A stretch of 64,000 nucleotides of DNA from Candidatus Palauibacter sp. (GCF_965208055.1 NZ_CBDBNY010000004.1:389706-453705), one strand, 5' to 3'. Numbered from the stretch's first letter, positions 18,724-24,729 are shown. Notes: generated from the sequence alone by a model not told the origin. Numbers and translations: made by a program.

Positions 18724-21700
18724 TTGGCTTCCATGGCCCTGAATCCCGTCGCCTACATCGAGAAGGTCGCGAAGAGCTTCCTCCGCTACCAGCTCACGGC
18801 CTACCCCTTCTCCGACCCTCACCTCCTGGGGCAGATGCGGGAACTGCTCTCGCTGGACCACACCCGCGCATCCCCGCTTCTCAGGGGGCCCTATGTGAGT
18901 CTTTCGCGCCCCTTCCGGGCCGGGGCATCGGTCGAGCAAATGGTCGACGAGGGCTTGCTTCATACGCATTTGGCGACCCGAATCCCCTCGCGGATCACGC
19001 ACTTCTACAGCCATCAGGAGCAGGCGATCCGGGCCATCGCGGAAGGTCGGACGACGCTCATCTCCACCGGGACCGGATCGGGGAAGACGGAGTGTTTCCT
19101 CTACCCCGTCGTGAGTCAGGCCCTGAGCTTGAGGGACGAGTCCGCAGCCCCAGGCGTCAGCGCCGTGATCGTGTATCCGATGAACGCGCTGGCCGAGGAC
19201 CAGCTCATGCGGATTCGCGGCCTCCTGGCCGGTACCGGCGTCCCGTTCGGGATTTACGTCGGCAAGACCCCGGAACGCGAGTCCGATGTCGTCGGCGCCA
19301 AGCTTCGGCCCGGGTCGTCGCGGGAGGACTACTTGGCGCGCCTCGAGAAAGCCAGGCGAGACGGGACGGGCGAGTCCGTGTACCCGAGCGAGGAGGTCTG
19401 CTCGCGCCAAGCCATGAGGACACCGGGGAAACAGCCCAGAATCCTCCTGACCAACGTCAAGCAGCTGGAGCTGCTTCTTACGCGGCAAAAGGACATCGAG
19501 CTGTTCGAGGACGCGCGCCTCGACCACCTGGTGTTCGACGAGGCGCACACCTTCACGGGCGCCATGGGCGCCGAGACGGCTTGTCTCATCCGCCGCTTGC
19601 GGTCGTTCTGCAACATCGATCCGGGCCACACGACGTGCATCGCCACCTCGGCGACCATCGCCGACTCGCGGGAGCCGGGTGCGGCCCGCGATTTCGCCGC
19701 GCGGTTTTTCGGCGTCCCGGCGGGCGAGGTCTTGACGGTGGGGGAAGACTACGAAGCCGAGACCTGGGGGGAGCCGCGTGTGGTGCCGCCGACGCCGGAC
19801 GGAGATCCCTCGCGGATTCTGGACCGGAGCGTCCGGGCGGTTGAGGACGCGACGGGTGCCGATGTGGCACGAGCCTATCGTTCGCTGTCCGGCGGCGATC
19901 TGCCAGCGCAGGATGATGGCGACTGGCCCGGAGCGCTGCACGCGGCGCTCGCCCGCAACGAACTGGTCTACCGTCTCAACGAGCAACTCGCCGGGCCGCG
20001 CGCGCTTGATGAACTGCCGAAGGCGTTGGAGAGGCACGTCGGGCGGCCGGTCACCGAAGCCGAAATTCTCACTTGGCTGACCCTCGGGGCGGCCGCGCGC
20101 CGCGCGGGACGTCCCCTGCTGCGGCCCGTGATCCACGGATTTGTGCGCGGCATCGGCGGTTCGGTGGTCTCGTTCCCGGAGGACCGGGAACGTGCGCGGC
20201 TGTGGCTCACGGCACGGGACGACGCTCCCTCCGACGTGTTCGAGGGCGGGCCTGAGCCCCGCGGCGACGAGTACGCCCATTTGCCCGTCACTACCTGCAC
20301 GGTGTGCGGGCAACATTACTATATCGCGTTCCTCAAGGATTTCTCGTTCACCGGAAAGCGTCCCGGCGGCGGGGAAGCGGACCGGGACGGCATGCACTGG
20401 GCACCGCTGGACGAGACGAACGGGGGCAAGCGCGTTGTGCTCGTGGATCGCCTGATCGGCGAGACGGAGCGCGATGGTGAGGCGTCCGCCCCGAGGCGTA
20501 CGGCCCCGATACACCTGTGCCGCCGCTGCGGCGCGGCGCACGGGGATCACGCCGACCGGTGTCGCGCCTGCGGCCGGGTTGGCGCGACGGTGGCGCTGCA
20601 CGCGATCCGGCAGAATGCGGACAACCCCGGCCGGTTAACAAGTTGCCTCTCCTGCGGGTCCAACGGCCGCCGCGTGATGGGGCGCTACCGCGAACCGGCG
20701 CGGCCGGTGCGGGCGGTGACCGTGGCCGATGTCCACGTTCTGACGCAGGACATGGTGCATCACGCCGAGCGCCCCCGGCTGCTCGTGTTCTGCGACAACC
20801 GCCAGGATGCGGCGTTCCAGGCGGGCTGGATGAAGGACCACGCCCGCCGCTTCCGCCTTCGGGCCCTCATGGCGGAAGGAATCAGGGAGCACCCGGGCGG
20901 CTCGGTCGGCGACTTGGCGGCCTTTCTCGATGATCGCCTGGAACGCGAGGAAACGCTTTCGCGGGCGCTCGCTCCCGAGGTCTGGCAGGTGGCTCGGCGG
21001 GAAGGATCGGGCGGACGCCACGCCCGGGAGCGGCGGAAGTACCTTCGCATCCAGGTGCTGCGCGAGGTCGCGCTGTCCGCCCGCCAAGCGCTCGGGCTCG
21101 AGCCGTGGGGGCGGCTGAAGGTCGAATACGCCGGCCTGTCCGCGTCGCTCCCGTGGATACAGGAACAAGCGAACCGCTTGGGCATCCCCGCGGACCGCCT
21201 CCGAGACGGAGTGGCGAGCGTCCTCGACTACTTTCGCCGGCGAGGCGCTCTGTTGGACCCCGAATACAATCTCTTCACGAGGTATTGGGACGAGGGTTCC
21301 GCCGAAGTGCAGCAGGGATTCCTGCCGGGATTCATAAAGCCGCTTGGCTTGAAGCTCCGCCGCGGGCCGGAGGAGAAGTCCGAGTGGGTCATGCAGTGGC
21401 TGAGTAGTGCCGGGGACACGACCATGCGCCAGATCGCGCGGAAGTGGGGGGAGCCGACCGATTCGGTCGAGCCCTTCCTGGAAGGCCTCTTCGCCTTCCT
21501 GGTCCGCCGTAAACTCGTCAAGCCGGTCCGCCTGCTGGGTGCCCGGGGCAGGCCGCTGCCCAACCTCGAGAACGTGCATCAGGTGAATGGCGATGCCCTT
21601 AGGCTGGATCCGAACAAAGGCGTGTACCGCTGCGCGAAGTGCCGGCGGACGACCACGCGTGAACTGCCCCACCGCCTCTGCCCTGCGTGGCGCTGCGATG

Positions 21701-24700: not shown

Positions 24701-24729
24701 ACTGTAGTCGCGTGTGGTCCCGGGGCTGA
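18724..24729 (+). CDS. 2001-aa fusion protein: DEAD/DEAH helicase with zinc-ribbon insertions, DUF1998 (MrfA-Zn-like) module, DUF559-like PD-(D/E)xK module and LexA-type S24 peptidase domain
   Basis: Motifs seen:
- Walker A GTGSGKT at aa 116-122.
- DEAH at aa 272-275.
- Four CxxC pairs at aa 525-644.
- CxxC...Cx4C at aa 970-991.
- Motif VI QRAGRAGRR at aa 1080-1088.
- DUF1998-like Cys clusters GYPVCTICGQ and GCPSVCGSSCIDC.
- TPDVIY...CIYLDG...RDREIRHWLRGSGYEVLEI.
- C-terminal VPLVPLRAAAGAF, GRSMEP and FTVKRY.

The start may be TTG 18724 or ATG 18733. Confidence 0.9.
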   Translation: MASMALNPVAYIEKVAKSFLRYQLTAYPFSDPHLLGQMRELLSLDHTRASPLLRGPYVSLSRPFRAGASVEQMVDEGLLHTHLATRIPSRITHFYSHQEQAIRAIAEGRTTLISTGTGSGKTECFLYPVVSQALSLRDESAAPGVSAVIVYPMNALAEDQLMRIRGLLAGTGVPFGIYVGKTPERESDVVGAKLRPGSSREDYLARLEKARRDGTGESVYPSEEVCSRQAMRTPGKQPRILLTNVKQLELLLTRQKDIELFEDARLDHLVFDEAHTFTGAMGAETACLIRRLRSFCNIDPGHTTCIATSATIADSREPGAARDFAARFFGVPAGEVLTVGEDYEAETWGEPRVVPPTPDGDPSRILDRSVRAVEDATGADVARAYRSLSGGDLPAQDDGDWPGALHAALARNELVYRLNEQLAGPRALDELPKALERHVGRPVTEAEILTWLTLGAAARRAGRPLLRPVIHGFVRGIGGSVVSFPEDRERARLWLTARDDAPSDVFEGGPEPRGDEYAHLPVTTCTVCGQHYYIAFLKDFSFTGKRPGGGEADRDGMHWAPLDETNGGKRVVLVDRLIGETERDGEASAPRRTAPIHLCRRCGAAHGDHADRCRACGRVGATVALHAIRQNADNPGRLTSCLSCGSNGRRVMGRYREPARPVRAVTVADVHVLTQDMVHHAERPRLLVFCDNRQDAAFQAGWMKDHARRFRLRALMAEGIREHPGGSVGDLAAFLDDRLEREETLSRALAPEVWQVARREGSGGRHARERRKYLRIQVLREVALSARQALGLEPWGRLKVEYAGLSASLPWIQEQANRLGIPADRLRDGVASVLDYFRRRGALLDPEYNLFTRYWDEGSAEVQQGFLPGFIKPLGLKLRRGPEEKSEWVMQWLSSAGDTTMRQIARKWGEPTDSVEPFLEGLFAFLVRRKLVKPVRLLGARGRPLPNLENVHQVNGDALRLDPNKGVYRCAKCRRTTTRELPHRLCPAWRCDGALKWIPENPDDYNLQLLDQAYSMLRPEEHTAMVPNDHRERLENWFKGESNAVNCLVCTPTLELGIDIGRLDSVLMRNVPPLPANYWQRAGRAGRRHRMAVNMTYCRPVSHDRAYFAEPPKLLDGRIDPPAFNLRNEVMVAKHVHATVIAALHRHGRDPRRPEAERRRTREVLAACLPQRVKPYLFDHGVVRREPFDFDLLRELVRDNRSDLVDRVCGVFSGGWPEEDSDVVTPDALRMHVDEFADELETVVTRLRRRLRWAMDQIRRLNALREKHGTLEGEDEALFRRCGRLVARLKGEDRGRRHAEGHDSSITFSVLAAEGFLPGYGLETGYVMAWAEIPFWLDGAMDFVLPRAPATALREYVPGNLIYANGHRFVARRFHRDFADERVEMPVYEVSSAHQAVRETSVGASSSLAGETLQAMAVCDVDLSHTSHISDDEELRFQLGVAVYGLELGQHSGGRAYGWGERPLLMRRGVRMRLVNVGASEPIRARDSFGYPVCTICGQSVSPLSSQPQRRSFRESHGQRCGREPRRIGFYADIAADALSLPECVNATQADSVLEALRIGATRVLDMHMEDLQILVIGEMGRDEVLGLLWDPMAGGSGLLDRLCERFAEIVAVAREVVEGCPSVCGSSCIDCLQTFRNAYYHSSLDRRAALDALGEWGEQLAFRHDVPPRQPASTPADDAVPVNLAERKLRHLLLRAGFGEGTRGEQIRLDSALGTTTPDVIYREDDDGFCKGVCIYLDGMSAHLHGSPETAARDREIRHWLRGSGYEVLEIPANELDDEGAMTGHFRRLANYLGQPNRGRDLSDDRSWFADPDPSGKTDDPADIPRLRLVTPTPESRYRTCVPLVPLRAAAGAFGDPNETLDEWDRDWVAVNTVRRLRDGMFVARVTGRSMEPRIPDGSYCLFASPVTGSRQGRTVLVIMRDDVDPETGARFTVKRYRSEKTEDENGWRHAKISLEPTNPDFDPIILRVDDEAAVGVVAELVEVIGLTPPLNCSRVWSRG

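Follow-up and report, generated by a model that had tools for sequence, protein, structure and literature searches.

Why would a bacterial helicase end in a LexA-like peptidase? The question is raised by a 64,000-nucleotide stretch of a Candidatus Palauibacter sp. genome (GCF_965208055.1 NZ_CBDBNY010000004.1:389706-453705; the whole stretch is called the window here), in which a single gene encodes a 2001-amino-acid (aa) protein with a superfamily 2 (SF2) helicase core, a DUF1998 zinc module, a nuclease-like segment, and a LexA-like S24 domain. Comparison with known defense systems indicates that the protein is very probably ArmC, the YprA-family (DruE-related) DExH helicase-OB-CON-DUF1998-Vsr effector of an ARMADA system. 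The S24 module at its end is a portable C-terminal add-on of restriction-type enzymes, and we tentatively propose that it works as an off-switch coupled to the SOS response. The explanation as a whole (ArmC identity, portable S24 module, and SOS-coupled off-switch) is given a probability of about 0.45.

The original prediction described one uninterrupted open reading frame (ORF), and translation confirmed it, with 2001 codons, a TTG start, and zero internal stops. The GC content at third codon positions (GC3) is 0.81, typical for coding sequence of this 66% GC window. An ATG at 18733, three codons into the ORF, is the more plausible and probably the true start. The predicted helicase and DUF1998 motifs were found at exactly the residues claimed for them: GTGSGKT at aa 116–122, DEAH at aa 272–275, QRAGRAGRR at aa 1080–1088, GYPVCTICGQ at aa 1490–1499, and GCPSVCGSSCIDC at aa 1620–1632. 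Pfam supports the same core, with matches above the gathering score to DEAD (E 1.7e-21), to Helicase_C at aa 1023–1088 (E 3e-11), and to MZB/DUF1998 (PF09369) at aa 1555–1633 (E 3.7e-6, 28 bits against a cut-off of 24.2). Peptidase_S24 (PF00717) also scores above its gathering threshold at aa 1849–1979 (E 2.5e-8, and E 3e-10 with the isolated segment). A long insertion had been proposed between the RecA-like halves, and ~680 residues with CxxC motifs do separate them. This insertion corresponds in position to the BrxA-like/zinc beta-barrel/MarR-like insert published for ArmC and DruE; weak zinc-ribbon matches were all that Pfam gave for it. A promoter and terminator scan of 18300–25600 produced no match; in DNA of 66% GC, scanning for the sigma-70 consensus is not informative.

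A protein of this length could be an artifact in which separate genes were joined by assembly or annotation. The ~1980–2060-aa architecture recurs in over 100 clusters (90% identity) from independent assemblies, closed chromosomes included, which refutes the artifact and makes an assembly chimera vanishingly improbable.

Profiles from PADLOC place the protein among defense helicases. The top models were DruE3 (E 1e-100) and DruE1 (E 8e-99), and the DrmA model reached only E 8e-15. The context of defense helicases related to DISARM, Druantia, and MrfA had been predicted correctly. ARMADA comprises an SNF2 helicase (ArmA), a PglX-like methylase (ArmB), and a YprA-like helicase with a C-terminal Vsr nuclease (ArmC) (Bell et al. 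2025, PMC12458937). The published ArmC chain consists of the helicase, an OB-CON-DUF1998 region, and the C-terminal Vsr nuclease (PMC12458937). We used the Escherichia coli ATCC 8739 locus as the reference for ARMADA II and Druantia III proteins. Residues 8–1638 of the window protein are collinear with residues 3–1643 of E. coli ArmC (23.7% identity, E 2e-67), a correspondence over ~1630 residues, and the two share the YprA-family DExH helicase, the large zinc-rich insert, and the fused OB-CON-DUF1998 region; the Vsr-type nuclease at the C-terminus of E. coli ArmC has a putative counterpart in the window protein. For E. coli DruE, the matches are limited to short helicase motifs.

The partner genes agree with this assignment, since the locus also has a BrxHII/SNF2-type ArmA and a PglX-like ArmB. 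The window ArmA is 28% identical to E. coli ArmA (E 2e-58) and matches DrmD (E 1e-190) and BrxHII (E 5e-69) in PADLOC, as well as SNF2-rel_dom and Helicase_C in Pfam. ArmB matches its E. coli counterpart with E 3e-24 and the DrmMI model with E 1e-120. It is cut by an in-frame TAG at 12347–12349 into ORFs of 1172 and 623 aa in the same frame, which cover positions 3–1056 and 1150–1497 of the PADLOC REase_MTase_IIG model. ArmB of relatives is a single gene of 1802–1832 aa, and all 14 of 14 aligned homologs have tryptophan (TGG) at the position of the TAG, which is either a G-to-A nonsense mutation (a pseudogene) or a base-call error. The gene order is ArmA, ArmB, three cargo genes, and ArmC. ArmD, a GajB-like UvrD helicase with a RelE domain (GajB-RelE), was not found 3' of ArmC among the window neighbors; the locus is therefore Type I-like and not Type II. 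It differs from E. coli ARMADA II in this respect and in the ~24% identity of its ArmC, the three unrelated cargo genes between ArmB and ArmC, and the interrupted ArmB. The nearest relatives of the window are Gemmatimonadota metagenome-assembled genomes (MAGs), and Gemmatimonadota ArmCs are tabulated as ARMADA Type I (PMC12458937). Contig accessions of the relatives' loci, sought as a means of reading their ARMADA type, were not found in the accessible parts of the supplements to that paper.

The PADLOC label itself suggests another identity, a Druantia DruE acting with Druantia partners and not part of ARMADA. DruE of Druantia types I–III belongs to a sister lineage whose members are likewise large YprA helicases and have this insert and DUF1998. 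DruE models lead the PADLOC ranking, and in one relative (L010) a DruA-family gene lies just 5' of ArmC. That DruA gene has no match in the window, where the neighbors include no DruA–D (type I), DruM/F/G (type II), or DruH (type III) and where ArmA and ArmB are present. Druantia III DruE also has two C-terminal phospholipase D (PLD)-like nuclease domains, whereas the window protein has no PLD match and carries the Vsr-like and S24 domains instead. In addition, collinear alignment is seen with E. coli ArmC and not with E. coli DruE, and PADLOC-DB 2.0 (2023) is older than ARMADA (2025), so that ArmC-like proteins are labeled DruE. We consider the Druantia identity highly unlikely.

Two other families named in the original prediction were rejected. 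DISARM class 1 (DrmD, DrmMI, DrmA, DrmB, and DrmC) resembles the locus in that its DrmD and DrmMI models give ArmA and ArmB their best scores and in that the helicase family is that of DrmA. It differs in having DrmB as a separate gene and a PLD nuclease, DrmC, whereas the window has a fused DUF1998, a Vsr-like domain, and no PLD gene in the island; the low DrmA score and the fused DUF1998 ruled DISARM out. A MrfA/YprA repair helicase was rejected because of the defense island, the ArmA and ArmB partners, and the large insert.

ARMADA defends E. coli by experiment, and ArmA, ArmB, and ArmC are each required. The action of ARMADA II is direct and non-abortive and depends on the ATPase motifs of ArmA and ArmC and on the NPPW motif of ArmB. 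By analogy, ArmB of the window would methylate self DNA, ArmA and ArmC would be ATP-driven motors acting directly on phage DNA, and the Vsr domain is presumed to be the nuclease of the system.

The segment between the DUF1998 and S24 regions had been called a DUF559/Vsr-like endonuclease fold. No Pfam family matched aa ~1680–1800 as an isolated segment, even at E 10. Foldseek matches of a two-domain model (nuclease segment and S24) were dominated by the S24 domain, and the nuclease domain was hence modeled alone with AlphaFold from 18 homologs, giving a confidence score (pLDDT) of 82. Foldseek matches to this model are weak and not significant (all above E 0.001, the best with E 0.15), and the top ranks are mostly PD-(D/E)xK nucleases, namely cap-snatching endonucleases, the R2 endonuclease domain, TnsA, 3hrl, and the catalytic domain of I-Bth0305I (3r3p_B; probability 0.77, target-normalized TM score [TMt] 0.69). 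A profile of the segment against PDB sequences also had 3r3p as its best match (E 0.31). The structures 3r3p and 3hrl are those cited for the ArmC Vsr domain in the ARMADA paper (PMC12458937). The profile weakly matches aa 1740–1789 of E. coli ArmC through the common motifs PD...I[FY]LDG..H, and visual comparison lines the segment up with E. coli Vsr (PDF...VIFTHGCFWHHH...RD). Its own motifs are PD (aa 1720–1721), IYLDG (aa 1736–1740), HLH (aa 1744–1746), and RDREIR (aa 1754–1759), and the candidate catalytic residues D1721, D1739, H1744, H1746, and D1755 are invariant among 50 homologs. With modest scores, the Vsr-like assignment is probably correct at the superfamily level.

Helicase, DUF1998, and nuclease on one chain are thus an already known kind of protein, ARMADA ArmC, and not a new enzyme. 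The original prediction had supposed that neither a nuclease nor an S24 module was described on such a helicase. The first half of this claim fell with the Vsr domain of ArmC and the PLD domains of Druantia III DruE (PMC12458937); the second half stood, and the extra C-terminal S24 module is what sets the window protein apart from the published description of ArmC.

The final ~175 residues are shown to form a complete LexA-type S24 module, a putative autoprotease with its own Ala-Gly site, in agreement with the domain prediction. A model of aa 1640–2001 has a pLDDT of 82, with values of 92–93 across the strands that flank the cleavage site, and LexA C-terminal domains, lambda cI, and UmuD take the first 15 places among its Foldseek matches (E ~1e-4, probability 1.0). 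VPLVPLRAAA/GAF (slash at the scissile bond) aligns with LPLVGRVAA/G of LexA (A84-G85), GRSMEP with GMSMKD (Ser119), and TVKRY with TVKRL (Lys156). The predicted scissile bond is accordingly placed, by alignment, at A1852-G1853 (nucleotides 24277–24282), with S1891 as the putative nucleophile and K1936 as the putative base. The module shares with LexA, UmuD, and lambda cI the fold, the Ser-Lys dyad, the Ala-Gly site, and an LPLVG-like lead-in. LexA repressors have an N-terminal winged-helix DNA-binding domain through which SOS genes are controlled; here, the module is preceded by an 1850-residue helicase-nuclease. With the S24 segment as query, phmmer gave no match among PDB sequences at E 0.01, and the assignment came from the fold search and Pfam. 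The module is a subfamily of its own, mobile and carried on restriction-type enzymes.

Conservation bears on whether the module still cuts. The A-A-G site, the serine, and the lysine are 100% conserved in 71 fusions (53 on ArmC and 18 on type I HsdR) that average ~53% identity, and both kinds of fusion have the lead-in LR(L/I)V-P-x-PE-x-RY-x-x-CVPLVPL. Invariance across many phyla and across two host-protein families favors the view that catalysis has been retained over that of a mere scaffold. The S24 domain could still have a structural role, serving dimerization or partner binding as in LexA, for example by pairing motors for collision-dependent cleavage, with self-cleavage of no regulatory importance. 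The C-terminal domains of LexA, lambda cI, and UmuD are dimerization domains, and type I and ISP enzymes cut once two motors meet. A scaffold on such different host proteins would be expected to lose some of the catalytic residues, and a purely structural role is accordingly quite improbable.

The original prediction had asked how often S24 accompanies these helicases. Among the 120 closest homolog clusters (65–98% identity), 109 have the tail with both its cleavage and its catalytic motifs. The 11 tail-less clusters occupy one region of the tree and are nested among tail-bearing proteins, indicating secondary loss of the tail. In a scan of species-representative genomes, at least 491 have relatives of the C-terminal region, including members of Gemmatimonadota, Acidobacteriota, Spirochaetia, Chloroflexota, Planctomycetota, Nitrospirota, Binatota, Actinomycetota, and Myxococcota and also species of Alcaligenes and Pseudomonas.

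The module is found on other enzymes as well. About 30 of the 80 fetched loci match the S24 portion alone, with 60–69% identity. In locus L056 (6869–10495) it forms the C-terminus of a 1208-aa type I HsdR, encoded in an operon with HsdM, HsdS, an AAA_21/15 gene, and a small gene, and the HsdR::S24 fusion occurs in ~20 loci (~20 species genomes). Two further HsdR lineages bear the module, making three in all (L063, 38% identical; L077, T1RH-like_C). It also ends type ISP-like proteins with a methylase and a target recognition domain (L071, 7094–10486; P0259; P0245) and is present on an MmeI-like enzyme (P0280), a PLD-ResIII helicase (P0334), and other ResIII helicases. An exhaustive search of representatives yielded 146 50%-identity clusters that match the module at E ≤ 1e-30, and nearly all of the best 150 representatives listed carry it at the extreme C-terminus. 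In a rough neighbor-joining tree, the HsdR-borne modules form one clade inside those borne by ArmC, and E. coli LexA is distant from every one of them.

The loci with the module on these other enzymes are L054–L084, and the proteins include P0245, P0259, P0280, P0329, P0334, and P0342. The module is internal in a few representatives, at 805–966 of 1166 aa in P0259, at 1155–1313 of 1490 aa in P0280, and in P0269, and 150–200 residues trail it in these three. An AAA_21/AAA_15 ATPase gene and a gene for a small protein without Pfam matches lie directly 5' of the S24-tailed subunit in both L056 (4728–6631, between HsdS and HsdR::S24) and L004 (8032–9992, between ArmB and ArmC::S24). The two pairs resemble each other weakly or not at all, so that this may be a coincidence or a recurrent accessory pair. 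Metagenomic fragments from the C-termini of such helicases and HsdRs (among them P0142, P0147, P0148, P0152, and P0156) are labeled "SOS-response transcriptional repressor LexA" or "phage repressor protein C" by the Joint Genome Institute (JGI), a systematic misannotation caused by the S24 tail.

The accessible parts of the ARMADA paper (PMC12458937) and its supplements make no mention of S24, LexA, or a peptidase on these helicases. Our literature search, in which most subscription journals were outside the scope, found no paper that joins S24 with DUF1998, with helicase defense systems, or with restriction enzymes. The S24 tail on ArmC is apparently undescribed.

The original prediction had the protein sensing through S24. 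Because the tail is common in the ArmC clade and recurs on type I, ISP-like, and IIL-like enzymes, regulation of self-restriction is at least as likely a role as sensing. All hosts of the module appear to be modification-dependent restriction-type motors or nucleases, which would need no infection signal and would be dangerous to a damaged chromosome. We therefore tentatively favor, at somewhat less than even odds, self-cleavage at A1852/G1853 stimulated by activated RecA as an off-switch during DNA damage, a built-in form of restriction alleviation. When the host chromosome is damaged and under recombination repair, RecA filaments would form on single-stranded DNA (ssDNA), and unmethylated self sites and ssDNA would arise at the same time. 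The filaments would stimulate ArmC to cleave itself at the predicted bond and release the tail, leaving a large fragment that ends in ...PLVPL-R-A-A-A. This exposed ...AAA end would resemble the ...VAA end of cleaved LexA and the LAA degron of the ssrA tag, and ClpXP or Lon could then destroy the motor-nuclease fragment. In this way the S24 module would act as an off-switch that is wired into the enzyme, coupled to SOS, and protective of the host genome.

Several precedents are consistent with the off-switch. The predicted C-termini after cleavage are [A/V/I/M]-A-A. LexA cleaves itself at Ala84-Gly85 under activated RecA, and the residues so exposed mark it for ClpXP and Lon (PMC3159453). With type I enzymes, proteolysis of HsdR acts as a restraint when host DNA is unmodified or recombining. 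HsdR of EcoKI is degraded by ClpXP through a degron that is unidentified (PMC4231737), HsdR of Pseudomonas aeruginosa undergoes Lon-like degradation, and restriction alleviation has been linked to RecA (PMC11109961). We propose this ClpXP/Lon-dependent alleviation as a functional analog, in that a motor-nuclease is removed to prevent self-restriction of damaged or undermodified host DNA. The EcoKI and P. aeruginosa HsdRs have no built-in autoprotease, whereas the trigger in ArmC would be intrinsic, namely cleavage by its own S24 module. The off-switch is the most economical reading, since modification-dependent restriction-type enzymes work without activation, and proteolysis is known to be required to restrain them once self DNA becomes unmodified.

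The same apparatus could work in the opposite direction. The S24 tail might be auto-inhibitory, with RecA filaments on phage ssDNA or processed ends inducing a cleavage that licenses the helicase-nuclease; the tail would then be a sensor of infection, in line with the original prediction. The cleavage apparatus is intact and invariant, proteolytic licensing is common among defense systems, and the related Druantia III systems are reported to respond to replication intermediates containing ssDNA. Such an activating switch would sit poorly on type I HsdR, ISP-like, and MmeI-like enzymes, which attack unmodified DNA without an infection signal and must do so early, and the existence of tail-less close relatives suggests that the enzyme is not constitutively toxic when the tail is missing. 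We consider activation unlikely. It is possible, and we would put it slightly short of an even chance, that the module across ARMADA, type I, ISP-like, IIL-like, and PLD-helicase systems is a widespread, portable switch responsive to activated RecA, a layer of immune control not recognized before, that couples immunity to DNA damage, whether off or on.

A number of observations weigh against the explanation that combines ArmC, the portable module, and the off-switch. The tail-less subclade consists of close ArmC relatives (~1810 aa), and its loss of the tail indicates that the tail is dispensable for core function. The A-A-G sequence is needed for S24 cleavage itself, so its likeness to a ClpX degron is not independent evidence. 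If ARMADA does not restrict according to methylation status, the argument from restriction alleviation is weakened for ArmC. The scores behind the Vsr assignment of the ArmC C-terminus are weak. ArmA and ArmB adjacency was scored in ~5 kb upstream of ArmC for most relatives' loci, and about half of the ArmC::S24 loci have no ArmB within that sequence. Finally, the nonsense codon in ArmB may mean that the ARMADA copy in the window is inactive.

Coordinates of the ArmC domains and of the neighboring genes are collected in Table 1.

Table 1. Features of the ARMADA locus in the window (nucleotide positions counted from its first letter)
Feature	Position	Strand	Evidence
ArmC-like YprA-family helicase-nuclease with S24 tail	18724..24729	+	ORF, PADLOC DruE models, alignment to E. 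coli ArmC
RecA1 lobe (Walker A GTGSGKT, DEAH)	18991..19743	+	Pfam DEAD and ResIII, motifs
~680-aa insertion splitting the RecA lobes; CxxC at aa 525, 599, 613, 641, 970	19744..21783	+	Motif positions
RecA2 lobe core (Helicase_C; motif VI QRAGRAGRR)	21784..22173	+	Pfam aa 1023–1088, motif
DUF1998/MZB four-cysteine zinc module (C1494, C1497 ... C1629, C1632)	23191..23622	+	Pfam PF09369, motifs
Vsr-like PD-(D/E)xK nuclease domain	23761..24123	+	Model, weak Foldseek and profile matches, motifs
Predicted cleavage-site region with conserved lead-in RLRLVTPTPESRYRTCVPLVPLRAAA/GAF	24205..24288	+	LexA alignment, invariance in fusions
S24 (LexA/UmuD-type) serine peptidase core; Ser1891 in GRSMEP, Lys1936 in TVKRY	24289..24693	+	Pfam, Foldseek
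ArmA: BrxHII/DrmD-like SNF2 helicase (GLGKT aa 247; DECH aa 359)	5262..8834	+	PADLOC, Pfam, E. coli ArmA match
ArmB: PglX/DrmMI-like N6-adenine methyltransferase (NPPW aa 961)	8831..14263	+	PADLOC, E. coli ArmB match
Cargo gene 1: Schlafen AlbA_2 and HATPase_c_4 protein	14275..15480	+	Pfam
Cargo gene 2: 425-aa protein, weak TIR-effector match	15623..16900	+	PADLOC PDLC00733 E 1.9e-8; no Pfam match
Cargo gene 3: Fic-domain protein (SoFic/PDC-S04-like)	16988..18550	-	Pfam Fic E 2e-13; PADLOC SoFic E 4e-14

The order of ArmA and/or ArmB, then cargo, then ArmC is also seen in L004, L002, and L053. The space from ArmB to ArmC serves as a slot for variable cargo (14275–18550 in the window, 3466–4665 in L002, ~3525–4709 in L053, 8032–9992 in L004, and 3–1492 in L023). 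A Schlafen-like cargo gene recurs after ArmB in L002, L053, and L005, and the slot holds an AAA_15/21 ATPase plus a small protein in L004 and L023. In L010 (1657–4161), the DruA-family gene and a 533-aa gene lie directly 5' of ArmC, with no ArmB within ~5 kb of upstream sequence. The nearest species-representative genome is the Gemmatimonadota MAG with locus L005 (OY762926.1), which is 96% identical in the tail. Its island (2364–11146) is a nearly identical but decayed counterpart of the one in the window, with ArmA and ArmB remnants of ~150 and ~175 aa and a 673-aa C-terminal remnant of ArmC that retains the Vsr and S24 domains; the Schlafen-like, TIR-like, and Fic cargo genes are intact. Elsewhere, ArmC::S24 is adjoined by genes for ubiquitin-like conjugation, namely Multi_ubiq, Prok-E2_E, and ThiF (L001, 1230–3415) or Prok-E2_A (L003, 3771–8001), in the manner of Bil/6E-type defense modules, and HTH-Peptidase_M78 regulators are near ArmC::S24 in both loci. 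On the 3' side of ArmC in the window are a 211-aa ORF without matches and then, on the opposite strand, a class V aminotransferase in housekeeping surroundings. A Dnd/Ssp link of this aminotransferase was rejected because of its strand and its housekeeping neighbors.

How a motor-nuclease defense spares a host whose chromosome is transiently unmodified or damaged is an open problem, and to our knowledge nothing is known of the mechanism by which ARMADA and Druantia do so. Should the tail prove inert, what is left is a further ARMADA Type I locus. The interest of the S24 tail is that the module generalizes beyond ARMADA. It moves between unrelated defense enzymes, which is useful for the annotation of fragments mislabeled "LexA repressor," and it could serve the engineering of damage-responsive protein switches. 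For these defense systems, the LexA-type tail offers a testable route from RecA filaments to the inactivation or the activation of immunity.

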